A DNA stretch of 64,000 bases from positions 1,879,086-1,943,085 of the forward strand of contig JADJQN010000001.1 in NCBI GenBank assembly GCA_016712745.1. The letters run 5' to 3'. Shown here piece after piece: positions 1 through 17,280 of the stretch (positions are counted from its first letter, which is position 1; every line of letters begins with the position of its first letter). The position numbers and the translations under genes are program-made. Origin of the DNA: Sandaracinaceae bacterium. GTDB lineage: Bacteria; Myxococcota_A; Polyangia; Polyangiales; JADJQN01. The notes under the pieces are model-generated. The model saw nothing but the letters and a program-made list of their open reading frames with translations, did no database searches and had not been told where the DNA came from.

Positions 1-1227
1 CTTGCCTGTCTCGTACTTCTTGGTCTCAGTGAAGAGAGCAATCTGTGCCAAGACCGGGTTCGTGAAGCTTGCGCTCATCACGAAGCTCGGGTGACCGGTT
101 GCGCAGCCGAGGTTCACAAGGCGGCCGCGTGCAAGCACGGTGAGCTTCTTGCCATCCGGGAAGATGAAGTGATCCACCTGGGGCTTGATGTTCTCTTCCT
201 TGATGTCCTTCTGGCTCTCGAGCCATGCCATCTGGATCTCGCTGTCGAAGTGACCGATGTTGCAGAGGATGGCTTCGTTCTTCATCTTCTTCATGTGCTC
301 GCCGGTGACGACGTCGCAGCAGCCGGTGGCCGTTACGAAGATGTCGCCGATCGATGCAGCTTCATCCATCGTGACGACTTCGAAACCTTCCATCGCGGCC
401 TGAAGAGCGCAGATCGGATCGATCTCGGTGACCATTACGCGCGCGCCGTAGGGGCGAAGCGAAGTTGCGCAGCCCTTGCCCACGTCGCCGTAGCCGCAAA
501 CAACAACGACTTTGCCAGCGAGCATGACGTCGGTCGCGCGCTTGATGCCGTCGACAAGTGATTCGCGGCAGCCGTAGAGGTTGTCGAACTTCGACTTGGT
601 GACCGAATCGTTGACGTTGATGGCGGGGCACTTGAGCTCGCCCTTCTTCGCCATCTCGTAAAGACGATGCACGCCCGTGGTCGTCTCTTCCGACAAACCG
701 CGGATGCCGTCCGGACCCGTGAACATCTCGGGGTACTTCTTGTGGATCAAGATGGTGAGGTCGCCGCCGTCGTCGAGGATCATGTTCGGAGCCTTGCCGC
801 CCTCGAAACACTTCAACTGCTGCTCGATGCACCATTCGTATTCAGCTTCGGTCTCGCCCTTCCAAGCGAAGACGGGGATGTCGGCAGCGGCGATAGCTGC
901 TGCTGCGTGATCTTGAGTCGAGAAGATGTTGCAGCTGGTCCAGGTCACTTCGGCGCCGAGGTCGCGAAGAGTCTCGATGAGAACCGCAGTCTGAATGGTC
1001 ATGTGCAAGCAACCAGCAATGCGCGCGCCCTTGAGCGGCTGCGTTGCTTTGTACTCGGCGCGAATGGCCATGAGGCCGGGCATCTCGGTCTCGGCGATTT
1101 GGATTTCCTTGCGGCCCCAGCTCGCGAGAGTGATGTCAGCGACCTTGTACTTGGCCGTGGTGTTCTGCGTCTTGGTGGTCGTCTTCGTAGTGGTCGTGTT
1201 CATCGTGTTCGTATCCGTGGTCTGCAT
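1..1227 (-). CDS. ahcY: S-adenosyl-L-homocysteine hydrolase; the C-terminus runs off the window start
   Basis: Own reverse-strand translation (the ORF is open at the edge, so it is not in the track): [13 protein letters not shown]...[34 protein letters not shown]...[12 protein letters not shown]...[33 protein letters not shown]. These are hallmark AhcY motifs. ATG at 1227 (alternative 1203), with GGAGAA a few nt upstream. Confidence 0.9.
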
Positions 1228-1270
1228 TTCGTTCTCCGTTAAACAGTGAGTCTTTAAAACGTTGCGCGAA

Positions 1271-2278
1271 CTAACTGAGCTTCGCGGCAACCAAAACTTG
1301 CCAACTTAGGTGTCGATCGGGACCGGCACCGTTCATAGTCGATGGAATGGGATGTACTTCCGCGCGCGAAAGTCCTGCGCGCTTGGCCCATTGAATAAGG
1401 TCTTCAGCAGGGAATCCGAGCCAAACATCGGCCTGATCCCCACGCATCGCTTCATCCTCGTGCGGAGCGTAGTCGATCACGACTACCGACCCGCCTTCGC
1501 GTAGAAGATCGGCAAGCGCCTTCATCGCATGTGCCGGGCGCGCGGCGTGATGCAAAACGCGCGACGCAAAAACCACATTCGCGCCGCCATGCTTTTTCAC
1601 CAGCGCGCGTACGTCGGCGTCGTCGATGTCGCCGCGAATGAGATCAACGTTCGCGTAGTTGCGTTTCGAGATGCGCTCTTGAGCCCGCGCGAGCTGCGCT
1701 TCTTCACGCTCCACACCAACGACGTGCTTGAAGACGGGCGCAAGCACATCGAGCAGCTTGCCCTCGCCGGTGCCGGCGTCTACTGCAAGCGCGCGCTGGG
1801 GAATGAGCGGAGCAAGAGCTGCGAGGTACGCCGGAAGCTCAGGAGGCAACTGCATCACGGCTCCGCCGTCGCGCGGCTTGCCGAAGAACTCACGTGTCTG
1901 CGCGTCGCGGGCGCGCACAATCGAAGCAACACGCGCAAGACTGCCGTCTTCGCTTGCAATGGCACGGCCCGACGCGAGGGCATCGGCGATCACGGGATCT
2001 TTGTCGGCGCCGTCCGCGAGCGCGACGAACACGCGCGTGCCCTGCTTGCGCTCCTTCAAGAGGCCCACGCGACGCAGGGACGAGATGTGGCGCGAGACGT
2101 TGGGCTGCGACTCTTCGAGGAGGTCCGCGAGCTCCCCGATTGCAAGCTCTTCGCTTGCCGTGAGAGCCAAAAGACGAAGGCGAATCGGCTCGCCGAGAAG
2201 CTTATAAAGCTCCCAACGAAGTGCCCCTTGGGTCTGAACGGCTGCATCCACATGCCTGATATATGCGATCATACGCAT
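1271..2278 (-). CDS. sahR: ArsR-type HTH fused to a class I SAM-methyltransferase-like domain; SahR-like regulator of the SAM/SAH cycle
   Basis: The N-terminus [51 protein letters not shown] is an ArsR/SmtB wHTH. The C-terminus [17 protein letters not shown]...VVGVE...[11 protein letters not shown] is a Rossmann SAM-binding fold. It lies 43 nt upstream of ahcY on the same strand, which is the architecture and context described for SahR. The start is uncertain: the tracked ORF runs to 2371, and I prefer ATG 2278/2272 or the GTG just downstream. Confidence 0.6.
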
Positions 2279-2299
2279 ACATGCAATCAGAAGATTATA
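2262..2299 (-). promoter_or_regulatory. Candidate -10 box and operator palindrome upstream of, or overlapping, the start of the SahR-like gene
   Basis: On the minus strand there is a perfect TATAAT (plus-strand attata, 2294-2299). The palindrome TATGCG-N6-CGCATA at 2262-2279 overlaps the candidate ATG starts. The near-palindrome GAATTCGCGCCAATTC at 2305-2320 lies just upstream. No convincing -35 box. Confidence 0.25.
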
Positions 2300-2462
2300 T
2301 CGCTGAATTCGCGCCAATTCGGCGGGGTCCGCGGGCGTGAATCCACGGCACAGCTGTGTATGACGCAGCACAGTGTAGGGCGCAGTGCGAAACCGATTAC
2401 GCGGCTTTACGCGCCTTTCCGACGAGGCACGGCGCTTGCTCTAGCGAGACCTCGGAGGCCAC

Positions 2463-3170
2463 ATGCTTTTCTTCGCAGACCAGTCCGTCGACGTCGTCAT
2501 CAAGCTCGTACGCGAGCGCTTCTTCAAAGATGCACCGCGCGCTTACGCCGATACGCACTCGGTCGCGCTCTCGCTTTTCGAAAGTGCCCCACCCTGTCGC
2601 GTGCTCGACATCGCAGCCGGACGCGGCGACCTGACGCGCAAGCTTATTAACCGTGGTCACCAGGTTACCGCGCTCGAATCCTACACGCCGCAGTTCAACG
2701 CGCCTTTCGCGACGCTCGTTGAAGGCGACGCAAACCGTGAGTGGCCCTTCCCTGACGCCTCGTTCGACGCGCTCTTTGGCATTGAGATCATCGAGCACGT
2801 GGAGAACCCGCGATTCTTCCTGCGCGAGGCCATGCGCGTGCTGCGCCCCGGTGGCATTGCGATCATTTCGACACCCAATCTCACCACGCTCGTCTCGCGC
2901 GTATTCTTTGGTGTGACGGGGCAATGGGATCTCTTCGTCAACAATCGCTTTCGCCTGCGCGATCCCTATGACGACGCGCTCGACGGGCACATTTCGCCCA
3001 TTCCGAACTGGCTACTGCGCCATCACGCTCGCGACGCAGGGCTTGAGCACGAGGAGACAGCGTATTCGCGCGCGTGGTTGCCCCTGCTCCCGTGGAAGCT
3101 CAATCCGCTTCCAGCGAGCGCGAGCTTTGGACGAATACTCGTCGCCCGCTTCAGGAAGCCGGTCGCGTAA
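2463..3170 (+). CDS. Class I SAM-dependent methyltransferase
   Basis: VLDIAAGRGDLTRKLINRGHQVTALE (motif I), FDALFGIEIIEHVENP, LRPGGIAIISTPN. Divergent from the SahR-like gene. Confidence 0.7.
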   Translation: MLFFADQSVDVVIKLVRERFFKDAPRAYADTHSVALSLFESAPPCRVLDIAAGRGDLTRKLINRGHQVTALESYTPQFNAPFATLVEGDANREWPFPDASFDALFGIEIIEHVENPRFFLREAMRVLRPGGIAIISTPNLTTLVSRVFFGVTGQWDLFVNNRFRLRDPYDDALDGHISPIPNWLLRHHARDAGLEHEETAYSRAWLPLLPWKLNPLPASASFGRILVARFRKPVA

Positions 3171-4569
3171 ACGGAACGGTCGCGCGAAAATCGAACCAAC
3201 CGTCGCTGCGACGAACGGATTCCAAATCTTCGTCCTGGTCGAGCGAGTGTCGATCCGCAAACCCCGCGTCGCGCGCCTTGCCTAGCCAAACGAGGGCTTT
3301 CTGAGGGTCGCCGGCCTTCGCAAACGAACGCGCGGTGTCGTACGCCAACCCCGGATCGGCGAAGCGCGCGAAGATGGTCTCCCCGAGCTTTCCCGCGATT
3401 TCGTACTGGCCAGCTGCGCGGGCTTCCTGCACGAGCGGCACGAGCTGAGCTGCGGCGAATACTTGCAAGTTGGCTGTGCTGACGAAGGCCAGCACCTCAT
3501 TCCAGTTGTTTGCATCCACGTGCGCGCGAATGATTGTCACTCCGAGGCCCGCATTGGGCTTGGCCTGCATCGCCTCCTCGAGCCGCGCGATCCCTGCTTC
3601 GAATTGCCCCGAGTGCACCATGACGATGCCTTCGAGGATCGGGTCAATCTCTTGCGTCTCGGAAATTCCCGAGAGCACATGCGCCGCGTCCGCGTAGTTC
3701 TTCTCGAATGTGAAGCTCCACGCGACAATCTCCGTCGCCGCGAGGCGCACGACGTCGGTCTTCGCCTCGGCTTGTGCACGGAGCGCGAGCTCACGCGCTT
3801 GTGGAAGTGCTCGCTGCGCCAAGAGCGTGCGCGCTTGCTCGAGCATGGGCAGCGCAACGCGATCACGCATGCGCACGAGCTCGCTGCGAAACGCGGTCCA
3901 CGATTGCAGCGCAAGCATCACGGTGACCATGGCCGTCCAATAGGACTGAATGCGCAACGAAAGAATTGCGAGCGTAGCCGCCAGCAGCATGGAGACAACG
4001 AGAGCCACACCTCGTCCGCGGCCCGGCGCGATGAGATCGGCAAACGAAGCAAAGACCTGTCCGCCATCGAGCGGAAAAATGGGAAGCAGGTTGAGCACGC
4101 CCCATCCGCCGTTCACGAAAAGGATGTAGCCAATGACAAGCTCACGCAGGGGCGCTCGTGCATCGCTCGCCCCGAGGGCTGCATCAAGTAAATGCATGGG
4201 ATGCATGCCGCCCACCATTGCGCCCAGTGCCACGATGCACGCGATGGCTATTCCTGTGAACGGGCCGGCCAGCGAAATTAGAATGCGTGCGCCAGACCCA
4301 ACCGGTTTTGCCGCATCCTGCTGCCACGCGGTTACGCCACCAAAGCCGTGCAAGGTAATCGTGGGCTTGTGGCCGAAGGCTAAAATTGCCAACGCGTGAC
4401 CAAACTCGTGTGCGAGCACGCCGGTAAAGACGACGAGCACCCACGCGAGGAGCGCGTCAGGGCGCGATAGCACCGACGTGTTGAGAATCAGCACGATGAC
4501 GAGAAACATCGGCTGCACGTGAATCGGCACGCCGAAAATGGTAAAGCCGCGTCGCTGCTTCTCGTTCAT
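3151..4569 (-). CDS. M50 (site-2 protease family) membrane metallopeptidase fused to a C-terminal TPR-like domain
   Basis: HEFGH zinc motif (VLAHEFGHALAILAF), a second M50 motif NLLPIFPLDGGQVF, and multiple TM segments. The C-terminal ~230 aa is helical-repeat or TPR-like. The gene starts 44 nt downstream of the 60-aa ORF on the same strand. Confidence 0.75.
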   Translation of the reverse strand: MNEKQRRGFTIFGVPIHVQPMFLVIVLILNTSVLSRPDALLAWVLVVFTGVLAHEFGHALAILAFGHKPTITLHGFGGVTAWQQDAAKPVGSGARILISLAGPFTGIAIACIVALGAMVGGMHPMHLLDAALGASDARAPLRELVIGYILFVNGGWGVLNLLPIFPLDGGQVFASFADLIAPGRGRGVALVVSMLLAATLAILSLRIQSYWTAMVTVMLALQSWTAFRSELVRMRDRVALPMLEQARTLLAQRALPQARELALRAQAEAKTDVVRLAATEIVAWSFTFEKNYADAAHVLSGISETQEIDPILEGIVMVHSGQFEAGIARLEEAMQAKPNAGLGVTIIRAHVDANNWNEVLAFVSTANLQVFAAAQLVPLVQEARAAGQYEIAGKLGETIFARFADPGLAYDTARSFAKAGDPQKALVWLGKARDAGFADRHSLDQDEDLESVRRSDGWFDFRATVPFTRPAS

Positions 4570-4586
4570 CTAGCGCGCAGCATAGC

Positions 4587-4600
4587 AGGCCCGTCGGCCT
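4587..4600 (-). other. Short hairpin (AGGCC-CGTC-GGCCT) between the 60-aa ORF and the M50 gene
   Basis: A 5-bp inverted repeat with a 4-nt loop, read directly from the sequence, with no U-tract. It may be a weak attenuator or RNA-processing stem, or nothing at all. Confidence 0.15.
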
Positions 4601-4613
4601 CGCGAGATCGCAG

Positions 4614-4796
4614 CTACGACGCAGAGAAGACTGGGCAGTTGATCGGGTCGCCCTTGCCACCCGGAGAGGTGCATGAGATTGCAAGCGCTTCGAGAGGCTC
4701 GCGATACAGGATGCGCGGGCGCTCGTAGGGTTTGCGAGGATTCTCGGTGGCTGCCGCCGCTAGCGTCGACGTCGGATCTGGATGCGTCTTGCTCAT
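4614..4796 (-). CDS. Candidate RiPP precursor peptide (60 aa)
   Basis: MSKTHPDPTSTLAAAATENPRKPYERPRILYREPLEALAISCTSPGGKGDPINCPVFSAS. Its ATG overlaps the rSAM stop codon (ATGA at 4793-4796). Third codon positions are GC-rich like the neighbouring genes. The N-terminal part is Cys-free and the C-terminal part has two Cys. No homology call is possible by eye. Confidence 0.45.
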   Translation of the reverse strand: MSKTHPDPTSTLAAAATENPRKPYERPRILYREPLEALAISCTSPGGKGDPINCPVFSAS

Positions 4797-5842
4797 GACG
4801 CCTCGCGAAGTAGCGGCAAATGCACGTGGGCTTTCTGCGGCGCGATCGAGCCCGGAACGTGCGGATTGCCCGTCTGAAGCTCAGCAAGGCCTGGACAGAA
4901 CGCAAACGCCCCCGTGACGCTCGCCTTTTGCGCGACTTCGTTGCGCACGGACACCGTGATGTCTCGCACCGCAGCCAACGTCTGCGACCCATTCCAAAGC
5001 TCGCGGATGGAGGCCTCGTGAAGATTGCCAATCGGGCGACGCCATTGAACGCAGGGCAGAACGTTGCCGTAAGGATCGATCGCGAGGTTCGACGCACCCG
5101 CGCCGCAATGCTTGTCGCGCGAATCAACGGGAGCATCGGCGTGACTCGGCACGGTCGAAAAATGCTCAAGCCGTTCGCTACGCGCTTTGAAGAATGCGTT
5201 CGTTTTCGAAACTCCCTCGGCAGTAGGCGCGAGGCTCAAGGGCGATAGATCTCCGTTGTCGCGTGGCTTCACCTCGGGGTCGACCTGCAACGCGATGCCA
5301 AGCGTCGCGGCGAGCGCGAACATCTCTTGCAGTTCATTCTCATTCCACCGCGTGAGCGTCGAGTTTGCCTTGACCCGCAGTCCGAGCGCGCGCATCTCGC
5401 CAATGTTTGCGATCAGCTGATTGAAACTGCCGCCAACGCGAGTCAGGCGATCGTGGGTCGCCGCCGTCGCGCCGTGCAGCGAGACCTCGACGAGGAAGGG
5501 ATCGATTTCGTCGCGAACGCGTCTCGCAAGCTCGGAGCTTAGCGCGTGACCATTCGACTTGATGCGGAGCACGAAGCCGCGATCGCGCGCCATTTTCCCG
5601 ATCTCGAAAAATTGTGGATGGGAAAGAGGTTCACCGCCGCTCAGAATCACGGTGAGCACGTTCATCGCCGCCAGCTCATCGAGAAGGACCTCGTATTGCT
5701 CGAGGCGCAACGGCCGGCCTTTGAGGGCCATGTCGTTGTAGCAAAACGCGCAATCGAGATTGCAGCGATACGTCAGCTCGAGGAGCACCGATAGGAGGTG
5801 ATTGTCGCGCCATGCGCGCTCAACCGAGGAGCGAAAACTCAT
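4793..5842 (-). CDS. Radical SAM/SPASM-domain peptide-modifying enzyme
   Basis: LELTYRCNLDCAFCYND (CxxxCxxC cluster), GGEPLSHP, and a C-terminal Cys-rich SPASM-like region HCGAGASNLAIDPYGNVLPCVQW...AFAFCPG. The start overlaps the PqqD stop codon (ATGA). Confidence 0.85.
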   Translation of the reverse strand: MSFRSSVERAWRDNHLLSVLLELTYRCNLDCAFCYNDMALKGRPLRLEQYEVLLDELAAMNVLTVILSGGEPLSHPQFFEIGKMARDRGFVLRIKSNGHALSSELARRVRDEIDPFLVEVSLHGATAATHDRLTRVGGSFNQLIANIGEMRALGLRVKANSTLTRWNENELQEMFALAATLGIALQVDPEVKPRDNGDLSPLSLAPTAEGVSKTNAFFKARSERLEHFSTVPSHADAPVDSRDKHCGAGASNLAIDPYGNVLPCVQWRRPIGNLHEASIRELWNGSQTLAAVRDITVSVRNEVAQKASVTGAFAFCPGLAELQTGNPHVPGSIAPQKAHVHLPLLREAS

Positions 5843-6126
5843 GGCGAGCCTGCTTTCTCGACAATGCCGGCTTCCTCGAGCTCGCGCGCGAATTCAGAGG
5901 CGTCCTGCTCGGCGACGAGCTTGTCCACGTCGAAGCGTTCCACGATGCATGCGGCAACGTCTCCAAGCGTGCGTGTTCCGTCGCGCATGAGCTCCAGCAT
6001 CGCCGCGCCGATACCGTTTAGCGCCACGACTTCAGCTCCGTCCAAGCGCACAACAACGCCTTCGTCTCCGACGACGCGGAAACGACAGCGTGACGACAAA
6101 CGATAGGGCTGCGCCAACTCGATCAT
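5839..6126 (-). CDS. PqqD-family peptide chaperone (RiPP recognition element)
   Basis: MIELAQPYRLSSRCRFRVVGDEGVVVRLDGAEVVALNGIGAAMLELMRDGTRTLGDVAACIVERFDV...ASEFARELEEAGIV fits the PqqD pattern. I trimmed the tracked ORF (to 6219) back to ATG 6126, which overlaps the upstream stop codon as ATGA. Confidence 0.7.
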   Translation of the reverse strand: MIELAQPYRLSSRCRFRVVGDEGVVVRLDGAEVVALNGIGAAMLELMRDGTRTLGDVAACIVERFDVDKLVAEQDASEFARELEEAGIVEKAGSP

Positions 6127-7076
6127 ACAGCGTCGACCCTCTCGCCTTGTGCAGAGTCGGATGAGATGAGCGACATGAAGCCGACATCTTTTGCAAAGCA
6201 GAGCGATTCGACTCGACACGATGTGACTATGTCTGCAATGACGCCCACGAGCGTGTCTGCGCGGTGCGGGTCGCTATTCACGAAGGGCGCGGCCGCAACC
6301 AGCATCGCGATGCTCTCCGCCTTGCCGAGCGGCGTAGTTCCGTGGACCTTGGCCTGTTTCAAACGGAAGATGCGGCGCAGCGGTACACGGACACAGCGCG
6401 TCGCGACTCGGCCGAGGTCGCCAGCAAATGGAACCTGGGCCACGTGGAGAGCGCCACTGTCGAGCGACAACGCGTTCAAGTCATCGCTCAAAACCGTGTA
6501 ACCAGCGGCCTGTGACAAACGCGCGACGGTGCTCTTACCCGCGCCGGACGGCCCGAACATCAGCAGCGCTTCGCCGTTCGCCACGATACCGGCGCTGTGT
6601 AAGAGAACGCCGCGCCCTTCGAGCAAGCGATACGCAACCAAAAGGCGAAAGAAGTTTTCAAAGACGATGGGAAATTCGTGCGCAGTGTCGGCGCTCGTCC
6701 AGAGCGCGGCGCGCGTTGTTTCGCCGAGCTGGATGCGACCCATAAATGATGGACCAGAAACGGACACGCTGTCCGTCTCGTACGTGAATGCAAGTTCGTA
6801 CACTCCGCGATCGAATACCGGCGGCAAGAAGTCGAAAGAGCCGGAACGGAACACAGCCACGTCAACACAAGCACCCGTAGCGACTGCGACCGAGTCAATG
6901 ATCATTGAGCCAAACGCCGGATCGATGGCCGCGCGTTGGCCCGCGGATAGTCCGTGCACGTGGTAGGGCCCGCCCGAAAAATCGATGTTCGCCACGAGAG
7001 CCCCGCATGGCTCGCCCGCCAAACGGCCCGGAAAGAGTTCGGGGTAGCGAATGAAGTGAGCGTGCGTCTTAGTCAT
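6123..7076 (-). CDS. HPr-kinase-related (HprK C-terminal-like) P-loop kinase
   Basis: LLHSAGIVANGEALLMFGPSGAGKSTVARLSQAAGYTVLSDDLNAL matches the HprK core (lHg..v...g.GvLi.G.SG.GKS..al.L...G..LvaDD). I trimmed to ATG 7076 (MTKTHAHF...), which overlaps the peptidase stop codon as ATGA. Confidence 0.7.
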   Translation of the reverse strand: MTKTHAHFIRYPELFPGRLAGEPCGALVANIDFSGGPYHVHGLSAGQRAAIDPAFGSMIIDSVAVATGACVDVAVFRSGSFDFLPPVFDRGVYELAFTYETDSVSVSGPSFMGRIQLGETTRAALWTSADTAHEFPIVFENFFRLLVAYRLLEGRGVLLHSAGIVANGEALLMFGPSGAGKSTVARLSQAAGYTVLSDDLNALSLDSGALHVAQVPFAGDLGRVATRCVRVPLRRIFRLKQAKVHGTTPLGKAESIAMLVAAAPFVNSDPHRADTLVGVIADIVTSCRVESLCFAKDVGFMSLISSDSAQGERVDAV

Positions 7077-7567
7077 GCGCCAAATCTCCGCGCAACCCCA
7101 TGCGCGGCCGAAGATAGAAACCATCGGGCCGCACTTAGCCGATCGGTAGTCCCAATCGACAGGCGGGTGCCCCACTCGTCGCGTGTGCTTACGCGCCCAA
7201 GCACTGAACTGATTGGCGTGAGCGCATCGGCAGCGGTGCCCGCATCAGCCTTTGTCACGGCGTGCAATGCCCCATTCTTCCATGCGTAGCCAAGGAAGCG
7301 ATGTACCGAGAGCGCCCCGTCGGACCGCGCATAAGCGATCACATCGCCTGGCCAAAGCCACCGGGTCGCCCGCACTCTGACGCGGGCCCCGCGCAGGAGT
7401 TGGGGCCGCATGCAATCTCCGGCGACGCGTATCTGAATTGCGTCATGCCCGATCACCGCTCGAAGCATGCTGGCTGAAATGTTCAACGGACGCCCTCCAG
7501 ATGGGCTCCGCGCCGTATCGCTGCCGGCTCCCCCTCGGAGTCCTAGGTTCAAGAGACCTAGATGCAA
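7073..7567 (-). CDS. S24/S26-fold (LexA/signal-peptidase-like) peptidase homologue with Cys and His at the Ser/Lys dyad positions
   Basis: IQIRVAGDCMRPQLLRGARVRVRA...PGDVIAYARSDGALSVHRFLG follows the S24 pattern v.GdSM.P.l..Gd.v.v...GDiv.....g...vKRl. The start is uncertain (7567, or the internal ATG at 7468). Confidence 0.5.
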   Translation of the reverse strand: MHLGLLNLGLRGGAGSDTARSPSGGRPLNISASMLRAVIGHDAIQIRVAGDCMRPQLLRGARVRVRATRWLWPGDVIAYARSDGALSVHRFLGYAWKNGALHAVTKADAGTAADALTPISSVLGRVSTRDEWGTRLSIGTTDRLSAARWFLSSAAHGVARRFGA

Positions 7568-7694
7568 ATCTGCGACGTTTCACTCATAGCACGCAGTCTC
7601 GGAGAATTGGGGAGCGGCTGAAAAAACGCGCTGATTTCCTAATATTGCCACGTACCAATCGCACGCGCTTTGAACGTGACGTATCTTCCCGCGC

Positions 7695-9329
7695 ATGACT
7701 CTCTCCTTCGATACGCACCCCGACCGATACAAGCACTGGAAGCTCTCTGTTGAGGGGGACATCGCCACGCTCGCGATGGACGTGGATCCGCAAGGCGGGC
7801 TCACGCCCGGCTACGAGCTGAAGTTGAACTCGTACGATCTTGGCGTAGACATTGAGCTCGCGGACGCCGTGCAACGTTTGCGGTTTGAACACCCCAATGT
7901 GAAGAGCGTCGTTGTGACGAGCGCAAACGACCGTGTGTTTTGCGCGGGTGCCAACATCCCGATGCTCGGAAGCTCAGCACACGCGTTCAAAGTGAACTTC
8001 TGCAAGTTCACAAACGAAACGCGTCTCTCCATTGAAGACGCCTCCGCGAAGAGCCAGCAAAAATACCTCGCCGCGGTCAACGGGCCATGTGCGGGCGGCG
8101 GCTACGAGCTAGCGCTGGCATGCGACGAGATTCTTCTCGTGGATGACGGCGCCTCGTCGGTGAGGCTGCCGGAAGTACCCCTTCTGGGAGTTTTACCCGG
8201 CACCGGTGGACTTACGCGTCTTGTCGACAAGCGCAAAGTGCGTCGTGATCGTGCGGATGTGTTTTGCACGACGAGTGAAGGCATTCGCGGCAAGCGCGCT
8301 GTCGAGTGGGGTCTGGTCGATGCGACAGCGCCCAAGAGTAAATTCGCGGATGCGGTCAAAGCTCACGCCGCGACGCTCGCCAAAAAGTCTGGCGCCAAGA
8401 GCAAAGGGCCCGGCATCGCGTTGGGACCCGTCGCGCCGCGCATCGAGGACGGCGTGTTTACGTACAAGTTTCTTACCATGAAGATTGATGCTGCGGCCCG
8501 CCGCGCTGACGTCGAACTGCGTGGCCCGGACGGCGCCCAGCCCAAGACCGCCGATGAGATTCAGGCGGCCGGCGCTATGCAATGGTCCCTTCACGCATTC
8601 CGCGAACTGGACGACGCGCTTTTGCGCCTACGTATCGAGCACTTGAATATCGGCCTCTTGGTATTGCGCACGCGCGGGAGCGTCGACGCTGTGCTTGCGG
8701 TGGACGAAGCGCTCTTCCAAGCGCGTGAGCACTGGCTGGCCAATGAGATCCTAGCGTTGCAGGCACGCGTCTTGCGGCGCCTCGACCTCACCTCGCGGAG
8801 CACCTTTGCGTTGGTCGACCAGGGTTCGTGTTTTGCTGGCAGCTTGCTTGAGCTCGCGCTCGCGTGTGACCGCATCTACATGCTTGCCGACGACGCAGAG
8901 AAAGTCGCCGTTGCGATCTCTTCATTGAACGGAGGGCTTCTGCTGATGAGCCACGGCGTCTCGCGTCTTCAAGCGCGTTTCCTAGCCGAGCCTGCGCGCG
9001 TGGAGCGCGTTCTTGCGACGAAGGGATTGATCACCACAGCCGATGCGGACGACCTGGGGCTCGTGACTGTGGCTCCCGACGAGATCGATTGGGACGACGA
9101 CGTACGCATCGCGCTGGAAGAGCGCGCGAGTATGTCGCCCGACGCTCTCACAGGCATGGAAGCGAGCCTGCGCTTTGCCGGTCCGGAAAGCTGCGACAGC
9201 AAAATCTTCGCGCGCCTGAGCGCCTGGCAGAATTGGATCTTCCAACGACCCAACGCGGTTGGTCCGCAAGGCGCGCTAACGAAGTATGGTCAACCGGATC
9301 GACCGACGTTTGATTGGAAGCGTTGCTAA
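7695..9329 (+). CDS. boxC: Benzoyl-CoA-dihydrodiol lyase (2,3-epoxybenzoyl-CoA dihydrolase), crotonase superfamily
   Basis: 544 aa. YELKLNSYDLGVDIELADAVQRLRFEHP, FCAGANIPMLG, KVNFCKFTNETR, GGGYELALACDEILLVDD, LPEVPLLGVLPGTGGLTRLVDKRKVRRDRADVF. These match BoxC as I remember it. Confidence 0.8.
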   Translation: MTLSFDTHPDRYKHWKLSVEGDIATLAMDVDPQGGLTPGYELKLNSYDLGVDIELADAVQRLRFEHPNVKSVVVTSANDRVFCAGANIPMLGSSAHAFKVNFCKFTNETRLSIEDASAKSQQKYLAAVNGPCAGGGYELALACDEILLVDDGASSVRLPEVPLLGVLPGTGGLTRLVDKRKVRRDRADVFCTTSEGIRGKRAVEWGLVDATAPKSKFADAVKAHAATLAKKSGAKSKGPGIALGPVAPRIEDGVFTYKFLTMKIDAAARRADVELRGPDGAQPKTADEIQAAGAMQWSLHAFRELDDALLRLRIEHLNIGLLVLRTRGSVDAVLAVDEALFQAREHWLANEILALQARVLRRLDLTSRSTFALVDQGSCFAGSLLELALACDRIYMLADDAEKVAVAISSLNGGLLLMSHGVSRLQARFLAEPARVERVLATKGLITTADADDLGLVTVAPDEIDWDDDVRIALEERASMSPDALTGMEASLRFAGPESCDSKIFARLSAWQNWIFQRPNAVGPQGALTKYGQPDRPTFDWKRC

Positions 9330-10583: not shown

Positions 10584-12002
10584 ATGTCGCTCACTGACTC
10601 CATTCCGAACAATGTCGACCTCGCATCCGACCCCAAGCTCCTGCGAGCTCTCGAAAAATGGCAGCCAAACTTTCTCTCCTGGTGGCGCGACATGGGGCCG
10701 GACGGCTTCCAAGAAGACAAGATTTGGCTTCGCACGGCGATCTCCGTCGACTCCAATGGCTGGGCTCAGTACGACTACGTGAAGATGCCGGACTACCGCT
10801 GGGGCATTTTCTTGGCCGAGCGCAAAGAGGAACGCCCGATTCAGTTTGGCGATCACATCGGCAAAACTCCTTGGGCCGACGTGCCGGGCGAGTTGCGCGG
10901 CATTCTGCGTCGCATCATCGTGACGCAAGCGCATACGGAACCGGCTAGCGTTGAGCAGCAGCGCCTCTTGGGAAAAACCGCACCCTCGCTCTACGACCTC
11001 CGCAACCTCTTTCAGGTGAACGTTGAAGAAGGTCGTCACCTCTGGGCGATGGTGCACTTGCTCCATCAGTACTTCGGACGCGACGGTCGTGAAGAAGCTG
11101 AAGCCTTGCTCGAACGTCGCAGCGGCGACCCCGACAAACCGCGCATCTTGCAAACATTCAACGAGACGACGAGCGAATGGCTCTCCTTCTTCATGTTCAC
11201 AATGTTCACCGACCGCGACGGAAAGTATCAGCTCGCATCGCTAAGCGAATCGGGATTTGATCCGTTAGCGCGTTGCACGCAGTTCATGTTGACCGAAGAA
11301 GCATTCCATCTCTTCTGCGGTGAGACAGGCATCGATCGGGTCGTACGAAAATCAGCCGAGCTCACCGCCAAGGATCCGAATGGCGACGCGCGCAAGCTGG
11401 GCGGCATCGACATTCCCACGATTCAGAAATGGATCAACTTCTGGTTTTCGAGCGCAGTCGAGCTCTTTGGCGGCGAGATCAGCAGCAACGCCGCCGATTA
11501 CTTCGCAACAGGTCTGAAGGGGCGCTACCGCGAAGACAAGTACAGCGACCACGTCGCGATGGAAAACATCTACTCCATGGACGTTCTCGAGGATGGCCGT
11601 TTGACGAAGCGCGAAGTGCCGATGCGCACCGCGCTCAACGAAGTCCTCCGAGATGAGTACGTCGAAGATTGCGAACGCGCCGTGCGCAAGTGGAATAAGA
11701 CTATCGAAGCGGCTGGGCTCTCGGAGCGGCTCTTCCTGCCAAGCCGTCGTTTCAATCGCAGCATGGGCATGTACGCAGGATTTCACTTCTCGGTCACGGG
11801 CGAGCCGCTTACACGCGAGCAGTTCGAAGCCAAGCGCGACGAATGGCTGCCAACTGCTGCCGACCGCGCCTATGTCCAATCGCTCATGAAACCCGTCTAC
11901 GAGCCAGGTCAGTTCGCGTCCTGGATCGCGCCACCGCTTCACGGGGTCAAGGGAACGCCCATCGACTACGAGTACGTGAAGTTCAACGAACGCGAGCGCT
12001 AG
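10584..12002 (+). CDS. boxB: Benzoyl-CoA 2,3-epoxidase (oxygenase) component B, diiron enzyme
   Basis: 472 aa. Two ExxH motifs (NVEEGRHLWAM, LTEEAFHLFCGE). The N-terminus SIPNNVDLASDPKLLRALEKWQPNFLSWW and the overall length match BoxB. Confidence 0.85.
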   Translation: MSLTDSIPNNVDLASDPKLLRALEKWQPNFLSWWRDMGPDGFQEDKIWLRTAISVDSNGWAQYDYVKMPDYRWGIFLAERKEERPIQFGDHIGKTPWADVPGELRGILRRIIVTQAHTEPASVEQQRLLGKTAPSLYDLRNLFQVNVEEGRHLWAMVHLLHQYFGRDGREEAEALLERRSGDPDKPRILQTFNETTSEWLSFFMFTMFTDRDGKYQLASLSESGFDPLARCTQFMLTEEAFHLFCGETGIDRVVRKSAELTAKDPNGDARKLGGIDIPTIQKWINFWFSSAVELFGGEISSNAADYFATGLKGRYREDKYSDHVAMENIYSMDVLEDGRLTKREVPMRTALNEVLRDEYVEDCERAVRKWNKTIEAAGLSERLFLPSRRFNRSMGMYAGFHFSVTGEPLTREQFEAKRDEWLPTAADRAYVQSLMKPVYEPGQFASWIAPPLHGVKGTPIDYEYVKFNERER

Positions 12003-12005
12003 GCT

Positions 12006-13748
12006 GTGACGAAAGCGCGTCCGTCTCTCGCAAGCCTCGCGCGTGGCTTTCGGTCGAGCTATCTCTCGTGGACGGATATCGAGGCGCAGCTTCGTGCGTG
12101 GGCTGATGCCTATCCGGAGATCGCCCATCTCGAGTCGATCGGGAAAACGAAAGAGGGACGCGAGCTCTGGGTACTCACGCTGGGACGCGACCCCCTACGC
12201 GTTCGTCCGGCCGTTTGGATCGACGGTAACATGCATGCGAGCGAGCTCTGCGGATCGAGCGTAGCGCTTGGCATCGCCGAAGATATTCTCGCGCTGCATT
12301 TGAACGCGACGACCGAGCATGTGCGCGAGCTTCCTGCCCACACGCTGGCGACACTCGAGAACGTTCTCTTCCACATCATGCCGCGCATCTCGCCCGACGG
12401 TGCGGAGGCTGTGCTCACCACCGGCAAGTACGTGCGTTCGGTTCCTCGCGATCGCAGACCCAACAAGAACCACGCCTATTTTACGGCATACGACGTTGAC
12501 GGTGACGGCGAGGCGCTACTTATGCGCGTGCAAGATCCCACGGGCGAATACGTCGAATCGAAGAACGAGAAAGATCTGATGCTGTTGCGTCGGCTCGAAG
12601 ACGAGGGCCCTTTCTACAAGATCTATCCGGAGGGGCTCATCGAGAACTTCGATGGCTCGCATGTGCCGTCGCCCACCTTTCTCTCTGACAACGACACAGA
12701 TCTCAATCGCAACTTTCCGCATTCGTGGCTGCCTGAACCCGAGCAGGTCGGTGCCGGACGCTTTGCGTTGAGCGAGCCCGAGTCGCGTGCCGTCGTGGAG
12801 TTCACGTCCGCTCGCCCTCATATCTTCGCTTGGTTGAATCTGCACACCTTTGGTGGCGTGTTCATCAGGCCGCTCGGCGACAAGCCCGATACGAAGATGA
12901 ACCCTGAGGATCTCGCGCTCTTCCGCGAGATCGGACGCTGGAACGAAAAGCTGACCGGCTACCCCACAGTCAGTGGCTTTGAAGAGTTTACGTACGAGCC
13001 TGACAAGCCGCTGCACGGCGACCTTAGCGACTACGCCTATGTACAACGCGGGTGCATCGCGTACGTGTGCGAGCTTTGGGATCTCTTCCGTCAGATCGGA
13101 ATGGAGAAGCATAAACGCTTCGTCGATCACTACACGCACATGACGCGCGAGGACCTCGAGCGCCTCGCCAAATGGGATCGCGAGAAGAATCGGGGACGGA
13201 CCGTGCGACCGTGGCGCGCGTTCAAACATCCGCAACTTGGCGAAGTCGAACTGGGCGGAATTGATTCCCGCGTAGGTCTGTGGAATCCGCCGTACGAGAT
13301 GCTCGACGAAATCTGTCGCGCTCAAAGCGCGGCGTTCTTGCGTGTTGCCGCACTTGCTCCGCGTCTCATCATCGCCGACATCACACAGGCGAAGCTCGGG
13401 GAGCAGATCACCGAGGTCACCCTCACCGTGAGAAACGACGGTTATCTCCCAACATACGTGCTCGCCTCATCCAAAGCCCTCGCGTGGAACGAACCGCTAT
13501 ACGCCACGCTCACACGCCGCACGCCGACACTGAGTATCCATCCGGGCGACGCGCGCCGTGAACTGGGACACCTCGACGGCTGGGGCCGCGGCCAATTTGG
13601 CGAAGGTAACTCGATCTTCTTTCAGCGCAGCCGCGGAAGCACCGCCTCGCGTACCGTCCGACTTCAAGTGAAGGGGCGCGGACCACTCAGGTTGAGCATC
13701 GGCAGCTGCCGGGTTGGCTACGTCGAGACTGAAATTGAAATCAGCTGA
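12006..13748 (+). CDS. M14-family zinc carboxypeptidase-like protein
   Basis: [14 protein letters not shown] (HxxE zinc ligands), NRNFP, NLHTFGG. The GTG start lies 3 nt after the boxB stop codon. Confidence 0.7.
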
Positions 13749-14598: not shown

Positions 14599-14826
14599 AT
14601 GATCGAGGATCACGAAGAGCGCGTGTTGGCTGTGCACCTCGGACGTAGCGCGAATTGCTCGTCGATCGGCAGTGTCGTCGACATGCTCTTTGTTAGTGGC
14701 GTTGTCGGAGCCGCCCTTTTGTCGGCGCTCGCCGTGATGCTGCGGTCGCCCAAGGGCAACAACGAGCCCCATCAGCCAGATGCCGAAGCGGCGGCGACCG
14801 AGCAACCGCCCGAGGACTCGGAGTGA
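14599..14826 (+). CDS. Hypothetical small single-TM protein (75 aa) coupled to the second rSAM gene
   Basis: MIEDHEERVLAVHLGRSANCSSIGSVVDMLFVSGVVGAALLSALAVMLRSPKGNNEPHQPDAEAAATEQPPEDSE. GC3-rich. Its TGA overlaps the GTG start of the rSAM gene (GTGA at 14823-14826). The start is uncertain (alternative ATG encoding MLFVSG...). Confidence 0.3.
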   Translation: MIEDHEERVLAVHLGRSANCSSIGSVVDMLFVSGVVGAALLSALAVMLRSPKGNNEPHQPDAEAAATEQPPEDSE

Positions 14827-16016
14827 AAGGCGGCGTGCGAGCTCGAGCCGAACGCTTCGGCGCGATCGTGGCGATGGACGAGCCGCCCGCGCTGATCTCG
14901 GTGAACCGCGCGTTCGCACGGCGGTTGGGCGTTGCTCCGGATGGACAATGGGGCGAAGACGAAGCAGGTCTCGAGATCGAAGTGCTGCGTGCACCCACGG
15001 AGGTGCACCTCGCTGCGACCATGCGATGCCCCGCAGCATGCACATCGTGCTACGCGGATGCGACGCCGCGCGGTCACGAGCCAAGCTTTGACGAGGTAGT
15101 CGCGCGCATCGACGCACTCGCTAGCGCATCGGTTTTCTCGATCGCCTTTGGCGGTGGGGAAGCGGCTTTGCGCGAGGACATCGTGAAGCTCGCCGCCCAC
15201 GCCCGCGCGCGCGGCCTGATGCCTACCCTCACCACGAGCGGGCTTGGCATGAACTCCAAACGCGCCGAGTCGTTCCGAGTCTTCGCACAGGTGAACGTAA
15301 GCTACGACGGCGCGACAGATGTATCAACAAGCGTTCGCGGCTACGACGGCGCTACGGTCGCAAAAGAAGCGATGCGATGTTTGGGCGAAGCCGGCGTTCC
15401 GTTCGGCATCAACACAGTTCTCACGCGAACTAGCTACGAGCACGTGGCCGACACCGCGCGCGACGTGCAGGCACTCGGCGCGTGCGAGATGCAGCTCTTG
15501 CGTTTTAAACCTTCTGGGCGGGGCCGGATGAACTACCTCGCCGAGCGCCTGACGTTCGCGCAAATCGATTCATTTGCCGAGACGCTTCGCACGCTATCTA
15601 CCCGCCACAGCTTCGCGTTGCGAATCGATTGCGCGCTGATGCCTTTCTTGGTGCAAGCCAAGGACGTGTCGCCAGAAGCCATCGCGACTTTTGGGGTGAT
15701 GGGTTGCGAAGCGGGCCGTTCGCTTTGCGCGACCAAGTCCGACGGAAGCATGTCTCCGTGTAGTTTTTGGGACGGAGGCCCAAGCGGCGAGCTCGACTTT
15801 CAAGAGGCGTGGGAGAAAGACCCAACGCTAAGCGCGTTTCGGTCCTACGTGCGCAACGCCCCCGAACCCTGCAAGAGCTGCGAATTTCGACAAGTGTGTC
15901 GAAGCGGATGCCGCATCGTAGCCCGTGAGCTGACGGGCGATGCGTTTGCGCCCGATCCCGAGTGCCCTCGCGTGCGATCTATGAGAGAAACAGACCCGGC
16001 AAGGAGCTCGACATGA
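14823..16016 (+). CDS. Radical SAM/SPASM-domain protein (second copy in the window)
   Basis: ATMRCPAACTSCYA (CxxxCxxC), FGGGEAALRED, and a C-terminal Cys cluster GCEAGRSLCATKSDGSMSPCSFW...PCKSCEFRQVCRSGCR (SPASM/twitch-like). The start is GTG 14823 or the downstream ATG (MDEPP...). Confidence 0.8.
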   Translation: MKGGVRARAERFGAIVAMDEPPALISVNRAFARRLGVAPDGQWGEDEAGLEIEVLRAPTEVHLAATMRCPAACTSCYADATPRGHEPSFDEVVARIDALASASVFSIAFGGGEAALREDIVKLAAHARARGLMPTLTTSGLGMNSKRAESFRVFAQVNVSYDGATDVSTSVRGYDGATVAKEAMRCLGEAGVPFGINTVLTRTSYEHVADTARDVQALGACEMQLLRFKPSGRGRMNYLAERLTFAQIDSFAETLRTLSTRHSFALRIDCALMPFLVQAKDVSPEAIATFGVMGCEAGRSLCATKSDGSMSPCSFWDGGPSGELDFQEAWEKDPTLSAFRSYVRNAPEPCKSCEFRQVCRSGCRIVARELTGDAFAPDPECPRVRSMRETDPARSST

Positions 16017-16402
16017 AGAATACCGTTCTCGCCCCCGCAGTTCTCGCCTCGGCAATCCTGGCCTGCGTTGGTTGTGGCGCGCAAGCAAACAGCCGCGCCA
16101 CGCTCGAAGAGCTCAAGGCCGCGATGGGCGCACGCTCGACAACGCCAGGCGACCGCGAGGCAAACACTCAGCTTGCCGTGCGCGTGGTCGAGGAAGGCGC
16201 GCTCGAAAACCTCCGTCGTGACGAGGTCATCGATGCGATTGGGCGCGGCAATCCTTGCAGCGTTCGCCCCGCCTGCGCGGAGCGCGGTTACGAAGACGAC
16301 GATTGGATCTACGACATCGGGGACGACCCGACGGCACCATCGATCGTGGTCGGTTTCGACACGAGCGGTCGCGTCAGCCGCAGTACGTACATCACGCACT
16401 GA
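16013..16402 (+). CDS. Small lipoprotein (possibly SmpA/OmlA/BamE-like fold)
   Basis: MKNTVLAPAVLASAILACVGCG (lipobox). Its ATG overlaps the rSAM stop codon (ATGA at 16013-16016). I trimmed the tracked ORF (from 15962). The fold assignment is only a guess from ...WIYDIG...VVGFDTSGRV. Confidence 0.5.
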   Translation: MKNTVLAPAVLASAILACVGCGAQANSRATLEELKAAMGARSTTPGDREANTQLAVRVVEEGALENLRRDEVIDAIGRGNPCSVRPACAERGYEDDDWIYDIGDDPTAPSIVVGFDTSGRVSRSTYITH

Positions 16403-16407
16403 TTTTC

Positions 16408-17280
16408 GTGCCGCGCACTTCGCATCGCTCGCGCGACGACGCGAACCACAACTTTGTTACGCACGAGTTCGCCGCGGAAATTGTCCGCAGAGTATCTGTC
16501 GCGCTTGGCGATAACGCGCGCGTAACACCGATGAAGGGCGCACTTCTCGCTCGCACTTACTACGAGGATGTCTCGCAGCGGCCTATGTCGGATGTGGACG
16601 TGCTGGTCACCGACATCTCATTGCGCAAATCGCTGCACGAGTTGAAGCGCGCAGGCTTCGTGCGAGTCGGCGTTAGCAGCGACCTCGGGGTCCGCACCCT
16701 GTCGCATCCATGCGCGCCTGAGCTCCTTCTCGACTTGCATCGCTTTCCCTTGCCCCTTGGCCTCGGTCGAGTGACCAACGCGTGGTTCTTGGTTGATGCG
16801 CGTGCCGACGACTCGCTCTTTGGTGCTCGCGTGTTCATACCCACGCGTACTCGCTTGCTCGCCCATACGCTGGGCGTCATCGCCAACGACGATGTCTATC
16901 GTGCTCACGCTCACACACTCGAAGACGTGAACCGCCTCGCGCGCGCACAGAACGTCGACGAAGACGTGCGCACGATTTCCGATGCGGGCCTACGCATCGC
17001 CGCCGTGCTCGCGCTCAAACGCGTGTGCGAGGAGAAGCCCTCAAGTGCGGCGTCCGCGTTGCTCACCGCGATTGAGCTGACTGCAGCCGAGCGACGCTTT
17101 GCTGCACGTTTGCATGCCGAGCTTGTGCGTTTGCGTTACACGCCAGAGCGCGCTTTGCGCGGGAAGATCGTTTCTCGCTTCGTGGCTGATACCTACGCGC
17201 TGCGAGCGAGATCGGTGCTTTCCGCGGGCTTAGGCAAAGCGCAGGCGCTGCTGCTAAACCGCTGGCGAAATTCGCCCTAA
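16408..17280 (+). CDS. Nucleotidyltransferase family protein (NTP_transf_5 / PF14907-like)
   Basis: VTPMKGALLARTYYEDVSQRPMSDVDVLVTD...ELKRAGF matches the lKG.al...Y.d...R.m.DiDlLv signature. I trimmed the tracked ORF (from 16255, overlapping the lipoprotein gene) to the in-frame GTG at 16408. Confidence 0.55.
   Translation: MPRTSHRSRDDANHNFVTHEFAAEIVRRVSVALGDNARVTPMKGALLARTYYEDVSQRPMSDVDVLVTDISLRKSLHELKRAGFVRVGVSSDLGVRTLSHPCAPELLLDLHRFPLPLGLGRVTNAWFLVDARADDSLFGARVFIPTRTRLLAHTLGVIANDDVYRAHAHTLEDVNRLARAQNVDEDVRTISDAGLRIAAVLALKRVCEEKPSSAASALLTAIELTAAERRFAARLHAELVRLRYTPERALRGKIVSRFVADTYALRARSVLSAGLGKAQALLLNRWRNSP

Follow-up and report, generated by a model that had tools for sequence, protein, structure and literature searches.

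Signal peptidases and LexA-like proteins share one fold, and the clan that they form (clan SF) is, to our knowledge, otherwise all-serine at its nucleophile. The 64,000-nucleotide stretch analysed here (the window; part of contig JADJQN010000001.1 of a Sandaracinaceae bacterium) carries on its minus strand a gene whose product belongs to this fold and has a cysteine in place of that serine and a histidine at the position of the general base. What does such a protein do, and how did it come by its cysteine? It might be a Ser/Lys enzyme with both residues exchanged, as a preliminary description of the sequence had proposed, or a signal-peptidase relative that has stopped cutting, or a working thiol enzyme of another lineage. 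We regard the correspondence of fold and residues as nearly certain, and think it likely that the protein is a PqqD-assisted leader peptidase with a putative thiol triad (Cys25-His62-Asp87), dedicated to a conserved cassette for a peptide that is synthesised ribosomally and modified after translation (RiPP). Judged from its sequence, the protein is a descendant of the Ser-His-Asp branch of the clan (the endoplasmic-reticulum and archaeal, S26B, SipW-like enzymes) in which the nucleophilic Ser has been replaced by Cys.

The open reading frame (ORF) that drew attention to the locus, 7073-7567 on the minus strand, translates into 164 residues and contains VAGDCMRP and LSVHRF as reported; the Cys and His (Cys52 and His89 in that frame) are 37 residues apart, in agreement with the earlier count. 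The frame is real, but its first 27 codons are probably untranslated. A GGAGGG box stands within this 5' extension, immediately before a TTG at 7486 and 6 nt 5' of it; the nearest homologue with its own genomic context (database protein P0002, 45% identical) is likewise 137 residues long, and its alignment begins at the residue of that TTG; and the N-terminal extensions found elsewhere in the family are unconserved. On these grounds we number the protein from 7486, so that the real gene is probably 7073-7486, encoding 137 residues, and the two residues in question become Cys25 and His62. A sequencing or assembly error at the Cys codon is excluded by the identical codon in independent assemblies and by the majority of Cys in the family: three further wastewater metagenome runs, each from a different study, have contigs that carry the gene at 99% identity or more, and these differ from the window's gene only at positions 7077, 7084, 7205 and 7383, leaving the catalytic codons unchanged.

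Assignment of the protein to the S24/S26 (clan SF) fold is borne out by profile, pairwise and structure comparisons. An AlphaFold2 model built from a 150-sequence alignment (mean pLDDT 94.4, pTM 0.87) shows a beta core between an amphipathic N-terminal helix (residues 5-12) and a long C-terminal one (113-136), and its first Foldseek match in the PDB is SEC11C (E 3.3e-4, template-modelling scores 0.53/0.49); LexA C-terminal domains come second, and SEC11A, SipA, SpsB, LepB and lambda cI are further matches, all of clan SF. Searched as a single sequence with phmmer against the PDB sequences, the protein gives nothing meaningful; the family profile gives SEC11A and SEC11C as best matches (E 1e-4 to 3e-4), then SpsB and LexA. 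In the alignment to SEC11A, G-x-C-M-x-P lies on SGSMEP, vHRllG on VHRVLK and ADaasrpD on GDNNAVDD, with Cys25 on the Ser of SGSMEP, His62 on the His of VHRV and Asp87 on the second Asp of GDNNAVDD. These three residues fall on what we take to be the SEC11A triad, Ser56, His96 and Asp122. The placing of Cys and His at the columns of nucleophile and general base, claimed from the motifs, is thus exact, in hidden Markov model (HMM), pairwise and profile alignments alike. More generally, the S26B enzymes (SEC11A/C, PDB 7p2p and 7p2q; archaeal signal peptidase I, TIGR02228; Bacillus subtilis SipW), which supply the best sequence and fold matches in the PDB, share with the window protein the G-x-S/C-M-x-P, HR and GD...D boxes, a His base and an Asp as third residue; they are, however, membrane-anchored secretion enzymes with Ser, whereas the protein here is a presumably cytoplasmic, operon-encoded partner of a RiPP chaperone, with Cys and no transmembrane anchor, and its scores are far below the curated cut-offs.

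LppS of Bacillota (Popov et al., Nat Commun 2026, PMC13381572) provides a functional reference point: it is an anchor-less SipW homologue of the SpI-like type, found beside HprK-like kinases and discrete RiPP recognition elements (RREs). LppS removes the leader of a linear polyphosphorylated peptide (LPP) only when the RRE protein LppB is present, and its S29A, H68A and D93A mutants are inactive (PMC13381572). Using the LppS sequence from Supplementary Data 1 of that paper, hhalign matches the family to LppS over 99 columns (probability 97.7%, E 2.2e-12), and BLASTP gives 29% identity (E 2e-10) for the window protein; the register pairs Cys25 with Ser29, His62 with His68 and Asp87 with Asp93. 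The role of leader peptidase, which had been suggested from the position of the gene, therefore has behind it homology to a characterised RRE-dependent leader peptidase.

The window protein has neither a transmembrane segment nor a signal peptide (its maximum 19-residue Kyte-Doolittle mean is 0.89), which points to the cytoplasm and would place the thiol in a reducing compartment. There a thiol nucleophile would be viable; canonical signal peptidases, by contrast, act on the oxidising side of the membrane. The Ser90Cys form of Escherichia coli LepB, made in the Dalbey laboratory in the 1990s, reportedly remains active with Cys and becomes sensitive to thiol reagents. That protein, however, is a Ser/Lys enzyme mutated in the laboratory; in the present family most members have Cys by nature, and the base is His.

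The family is large. An exhaustive HMMER search of 1.84 billion cluster representatives returned 567 matches at E<=1e-3, of which 164 reach E<=1e-10, where a word-indexed homologue search had found two relatives only. Conservation was counted in the best 150 of the 567 matches, each representing a 50%-identity cluster, residue counts including the query (n=151). At the nucleophile column 134 sequences have Cys, 15 have Ser and two have a gap, with no other residue; His62 and Arg63 occur in 151/151, and Asp87 is invariant in 150 sequences. Invariant columns of this alignment are Met26, Pro46, Gly47, His62, Arg63, Asp87 and Gly97, and Gly23, Pro28, Gly33, Asp48, Gly66, Asp81 and Arg116 are conserved at 90% or more. 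The distance from Cys or Ser to His is 37 at every locus checked, the Ser-type members likewise carry the His, and in one of them the Ser codon is AGC, a single step from TGC. Had orthologues shown random residues at the two positions, a degenerate pseudo-peptidase would have been suggested; they do not, and a nucleophile column that admits Cys and Ser only, beside an invariant His and Asp, argues for a working active site. By this pattern of conserved columns the protein is not degenerate. A FastTree phylogeny, for which two LppS-like sequences of the Ser type served as root, shows Cys as the majority state of the clade and apparently as its basal one, and places Ser at least three times by the well-supported branches alone and up to 11 times by parsimony.

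Two observations concern individual members. Protein P0064 (L004 1793-2425), named 'KEOPS complex Pcc1 subunit' by JGI, looks mis-annotated; its peptidase domain is preceded by a repetitive N-terminal extension (MRATARDVLE four times). For another member a Pfam PqqD match has been reported, which phmmer with the window's PqqD did not recover among the 150 and which we have not used.

Genomic context was read from the contigs of six family members and from two loci of one Acidobacteriota metagenome-assembled genome (MAG) that were found with the single protein; seven loci are informative (L001, L002, L003, L004, L006/7, L008 in part, and L009). They reveal a cassette in the order peptidase, ScmC/HprK-like kinase, PqqD, radical S-adenosylmethionine (rSAM)/SPASM enzyme and precursor, with the peptidase gene at the head of all seven. 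A ScmC-like gene adjoins it, or lies within 2 kb (L002), at every informative locus, and these homologues carry the Pfam domain PF27840 (ScmC). PqqD is 3' of ScmC in L001, L003, L004, L006/7 and L009 and is present as a fragment at the contig end in L002, and wherever the contig extends, PqqD is followed by rSAM/SPASM and a homologous small ORF; the rSAM/SPASM homologues (L001, L003, L004, L006/7, L009) are 48-70% identical to that of the window. In the window itself (Table 1), four more minus-strand genes follow 3' of the peptidase gene, the start of each overlapping the stop of the one before; the first overlap, between the peptidase stop and the ATG of the ScmC-like gene, is ATGA at 7073-7076 as read directly from the sequence. 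Since the cassette of L003 carries a Ser-type peptidase, we take the Cys and Ser members to be orthologues within one system.

Table 1. Coordinates of the peptidase operon and its features in the window
Feature	Position	Strand	Remarks
Peptidase gene	7073..7486	-	137-aa soluble signal-peptidase-like (S26B/LppS-like) protein, putative triad Cys25-His62-Asp87
ORF 5' extension, likely untranslated leader	7487..7567	-	27 codons from TTG 7567; no counterpart in P0002
Cys25 codon TGC	7412-7414	-	nucleophile position of G-x-[C/S]-M-x-P box
His62 codon CAT	7301-7303	-	general-base position, HR motif
Asp81 codon	7244-7246	-	>=90% conserved
Asp87 codon GAT	7226-7228	-	putative third triad residue
ScmC/HprK-related P-loop protein (predicted peptide kinase)	6123..7076	-	TIGR04249 ScmC 3e-9, HprK_rel_A 2e-8, below cut-off
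PqqD-family RiPP recognition element, 95 aa	5839..6126	-	PF05402 2e-13; weak lasso/GeoRSP PqqD matches
Radical SAM/SPASM peptide maturase	4793..5842	-	PF04055 1e-20, PF13186 9e-9
Precursor peptide, 60 aa	4614..4796	-	RRE motif Y24-E-R-P-R-I-L30; homologues in L001, L003, L004, L006, L009
Predicted cleavage after A37-L38-A39	4680-4688	-	Ala39 codon 4680-4682, Ile40 codon 4677-4679
M50 (site-2-protease-type) membrane metalloprotease, TPR-like tail	3151..4569	-	PF02163 1e-9

The loci vary around this common core. L003 holds a second, convergent ScmC-like gene (11268-12388, minus strand; 42% identical to the window's) with a PqqD-like fragment just after the precursor, which suggests a partial duplication of the cassette. 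In the Acidobacteriota MAG the peptidase gene occurs twice, each time on a contig of its own: that of L009 (3-2665) belongs to a full cassette with a WxxP-type leader (WQRPRIL), and that of L008 (8001-8686) is followed only by a weak ScmC-like match, at 28% identity and no longer than about 100 residues. At L001, positions 369-4613 encode a 1414-aa secreted Peptidase_C25 (gingipain-family) protein whose stop overlaps the start of the Cys-type peptidase; the window has no equivalent of it, and a divergent boxC-like gene is upstream instead.

What the peptidase would cut is suggested by the precursors. Six were compared, from the window (4614-4796, minus strand), L001 (7261-7446), L003 (10941-11099), L004 (1497-1751), L006 (3694-3897, minus strand) and L009 (about 1549-1730, minus strand), and all share the motif [Y/W]xxPxIL-x-RE-x-LE-[A/V]-x-A followed by x-x-C...C...S-COOH. 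The A/V-x-A stretch is conserved at +14 to +16 from the Tyr: residue 16 is an invariant Ala, position -3 is Ala or Val, and Leu occupies position -10. The classical rule for signal peptidases is a small residue at both -3 and -1. [Y/W]xxPx[L/V/I] is the RRE-binding motif of lasso and LPP leaders, and in LPP leaders, whose consensus is YxxPxVLxHQxIxFET, the cut follows residue 16 of that consensus and the Leu at -10 is important (PMC13381572). From these residues, the LPP register and the signal-peptidase rule we predict a cut between Ala39 and Ile40 of the window precursor, which would leave the 21-residue core ISCTSPGGKGDPINCPVFSAS.

The predicted cores have two further features in common. 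All six precursors end in Ser (...SAS, AAS, VNS, ISS, QNS and ISS), and all six contain two core Cys, the first at +3 after the predicted cut. By analogy with paeninodin-type lasso peptides, whose C-terminal Ser is phosphorylated, this invariant Ser would be a fitting phosphorylation target for the ScmC/HprK-like protein, and the pair of Cys a fitting one for thioether chemistry by the rSAM/SPASM enzyme.

Together these elements suggest the following mechanism. PqqD would bind the Y-x-x-P-x-I-L motif of the leader and dock on the peptidase, much as LppB contacts the N-terminal helix of LppS, and, on the model of the LppB-LppS pair, would offer it the residues some 16 positions downstream, with A-x-A placed in the groove. 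Cys25, deprotonated by a His62 that is oriented by Asp87, would then attack the Ala39 carbonyl, and hydrolysis of the thioester would complete the cut after A37-L38-A39 and before I40. The product would be the two-Cys core with its terminal Ser; rSAM modification and phosphorylation probably precede the cut or accompany it. The catalytic activity of the thiol, the PqqD dependence, the cleavage site and the order of the steps are all inferred.

Several points count against a PqqD-assisted thiol leader peptidase. Thiol catalysis by the Cys-type members is putative, the correspondence of Cys-His-Asp to the known triads comes from alignments and not from distances, and the AxA cleavage site is placed by analogy rather than observation. 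The curated models are matched below their cut-offs: PF00717, the sole Pfam match (E 4e-4 for the single sequence), scores 20.5 bits with the 164-aa ORF and 19.2 bits with the 137-aa protein against a cut-off of 23.3, and TIGR02228, the archaeal-type signal peptidase I, scores 24.9 bits against 51.85 (E 1.5e-5). The SipW model gives 14.7 bits against a cut-off of 190, and PF00717 is matched at E<0.01 by 114/150 relatives (best 1e-8). Inspection covered the best 150 of the 567 matches. The tree is poorly resolved, only 15/149 inner branches being well supported, and the number and direction of the Cys/Ser switches are therefore uncertain. Lastly, in the window and L001 an M50 protease gene lies directly 3' of the precursor, and its product could share in the processing.

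Of the alternatives, an active thiol protease with another job, such as trimming the far N-terminus or the C-terminal tail, processing a partner protein, or serving immunity or regulation, is possible, and less economical than leader removal. The cut itself is a prediction, and some loci do encode further proteases, the M50 enzyme in the window and the C25 peptidase upstream in L001. The signal-peptidase-like protein, however, is the only peptidase common to all the cassettes, the conserved A/V-x-A stands at the LPP-equivalent distance from the RRE motif, and leader removal is exactly what LppS performs. We consider such another job improbable.

A pseudo-peptidase is a second alternative: the fold would be kept as a scaffold which, together with PqqD, holds the precursor for the kinase and the rSAM enzyme, much like SipA, the pilus chaperone of streptococci, and leader removal would fall to the M50 or a housekeeping protease. 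SipA, a non-catalytic signal-peptidase homologue, is indeed among the Foldseek matches, the M50 gene follows the precursor at two loci, and catalysis by the Cys-type members is putative. Yet invariant His62, Arg63 and Asp87 beside a Cys/Ser-only column, across some 150 divergent clusters, are the pattern of selection on catalysis, and LppS is active through the aligned residues. Among the loci examined, the M50 gene is confined to the window and its closest relative L001 (7468-8880, 52% identity) and is absent from L003, L004, L006/7 and L009; since it recurs only in L001, we regard it as an accessory gene and not as the general leader peptidase, and its product may serve a lineage-specific export or second-processing step. 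A scaffold without hydrolysis seems to us decidedly improbable.

The preliminary description had explained the cysteine differently, as the outcome of a concerted exchange of Ser to Cys and Lys to His in a LexA/UmuD- or bacterial signal-peptidase-type Ser/Lys dyad. That PF00717 (S24) is the only Pfam match, that the LexA C-terminal domain ranks second in Foldseek, and that the 37-residue spacing equals that of LexA (presumably Ser119-Lys156) all speak for such an origin, and the S24 proteins LexA, UmuD and lambda cI and the S26A enzymes LepB and SpsB do share with the window protein the clan SF fold, the nucleophile box and the 37-residue distance to the base. They differ from it in their Lys base, where the window protein has His and an invariant Asp, and their alignments span only the first half of the domain: those to the Lys-type SpsB and LexA break off short of the Asp region, which the alignments to SEC11 and LppS do cover. 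The best sequence matches (TIGR02228, SipW, SEC11A/C, LppS) are of the His type, the nearest relatives SEC11A/C and LppS already being Ser-His-Asp, and invariant Asp87 matches the triad Asp of SEC11 and LppS. Because His is the normal base in the nearest relatives and Asp completes the triad, a single exchange, Ser to Cys, is enough; and because the Ser-type members of the family also have His, the His did not arrive with the Cys. The shared spacing is a matter of common fold and not of descent from a Ser/Lys enzyme, and the double exchange is very unlikely. A self-cleaving regulator of the LexA kind was likewise considered and rejected, as the protein lacks both a DNA-binding domain and a conserved Ala-Gly site for self-cleavage.

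Equally hard to credit is non-hydrolytic chemistry, in which the thioester acyl-enzyme would be resolved by an amine, giving transpeptidation or cyclisation as the S26-type TraF does on pilin, or in which the Cys would be a redox switch that ties leader removal to reducing conditions: thiol acyl-enzymes favour transpeptidation in other folds and the partner rSAM enzyme is oxygen-sensitive, but natural Ser-type members serve the same cassette with similar precursors, so that Cys and Ser probably perform identical chemistry, and a cut at the leader/core junction would leave the leader, not the core, on the enzyme. Redox-gated leader removal, in step with the oxygen-sensitive rSAM partner, is also much less likely than the hydrolytic thiol leader peptidase that we favour.

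Comparison with known systems places the favoured thiol leader peptidase closest to LppS without making it a member of that system. Both proteins are of about 140-150 aa, lack the membrane anchor of signal peptidases and consist of a beta core with a helix at either terminus; both are encoded next to a discrete PqqD-type RRE and an HprK-like kinase; and both go with a [Y/W]xxPx[V/I]L leader, which is cut 16 residues after the Tyr in LPP and is predicted to be cut at that distance here. The nucleophile is Ser in LppS and Cys here, with Ser in about 10% of the family. The LPP core set comprises SpI, RRE, HprK kinase, NTP transferase plus a transporter like MsbA, with no other core maturase, and lacks the rSAM/SPASM maturase and the two-Cys core that are present here; conversely, the window operon has no MsbA-like transporter, and an NTP_transf_5 gene lies 8 kb away in another module. 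Positions -3 and -1 are F and T in LPP and A/V and A here, and the LPP hosts are Bacillota, whereas the hosts here are Gram-negative-type environmental bacteria (the Acidobacteriota MAG and wastewater MAGs). The lasso B1/B2 system, as discussed in PMC13381572, resembles the cassette in that a discrete RRE binds YxxPxL and presents the leader to a cysteine protease; that protease, however, has the unrelated transglutaminase fold, and no lasso cyclase is present at the window operon. Similar neighbours are also found in SynChlorMet (ScmC; ScmD, a PqqD; and the rSAM/SPASM proteins ScmE and ScmF; TIGR04249-04251), where the window proteins stay below the equivalog cut-offs, at 36.6 vs 125 bits for ScmC and about 80 vs 400 bits for ScmE/F. 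The definition of SynChlorMet is not known to include a peptidase or an identified precursor. In classification, we place the window protein as a probable thiol counterpart of the RRE-guided leader peptidases of SpI-like type that act on RiPPs; it lies outside the strict definitions of S24, S26B and the LPP cluster.

The concept of an SpI-like leader peptidase was first published in 2026, for Ser-type Bacillota enzymes only, in a paper that mentions neither Cys-type enzymes nor rSAM enzymes (PMC13381572). A limited literature search, whose silence is absence of evidence, found no description of natural Cys-type members of the signal-peptidase/LexA fold or of the cassette, and nothing relevant on SynChlorMet/ScmC, a thiol leader peptidase S90C, S24 with PqqD, or clan SF with cysteine. 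On balance we incline to the view that hundreds of 50%-identity clusters form a natural Cys-His-Asp branch of the signal-peptidase/LexA clan, and that this branch acts in the cytoplasm, guided by PqqD, as leader peptidase for an as yet undescribed class of rSAM/kinase RiPPs. The exchange of Ser for Cys would have become possible once a SipW-like enzyme had shed its membrane anchor and entered the reducing cytoplasm, and the repeated reversion to Ser would mean that the scaffold works with either nucleophile. Natural alternation of Ser and Cys on one fold, as in the chymotrypsin-like clan PA, is textbook catalytic evolution; a large natural Cys-His-Asp branch, if true, would make the signal-peptidase/LexA clan a new mixed clan, and Cys-type and Ser-type orthologues in the same operon would amount to a natural experiment. 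The enzyme would also be a compact leader peptidase of 137 aa, probably sequence-specific (AxA, RRE-guided), marking an uncharacterised RiPP class (rSAM and kinase, two-Cys core, C-terminal Ser) in bacteria of wastewater, sludge and soil, and could serve as a handle for genome mining.

Some minor observations complete the description of the locus. A search of 7400-7750 revealed neither a sigma-70-like promoter nor a terminator. Within the 5' extension, and so upstream of TTG 7486 as the likely start, positions 7543-7561 form an inverted repeat, CTAGGT-N7-ACCTAG, which might serve as an operator but, its arms being of 6 bp, may also be due to chance. Position 7383 is C>A in two of the three other wastewater assemblies, a strain variant that changes Arg35 to Leu as in the truncated database protein P0001. 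A second rSAM/SPASM gene occurs at 14823-16016 (plus strand), about 8 kb from the operon, and is followed 3' by a small lipoprotein-like ORF and then by the gene for a PF14907 NTP_transf_5 protein at 16255-17280 (plus strand; E 8e-12); as LPP and paeninodin-type clusters also hold an uncharacterised NTP transferase, this module (14823-17280) may share the pathway of the operon.

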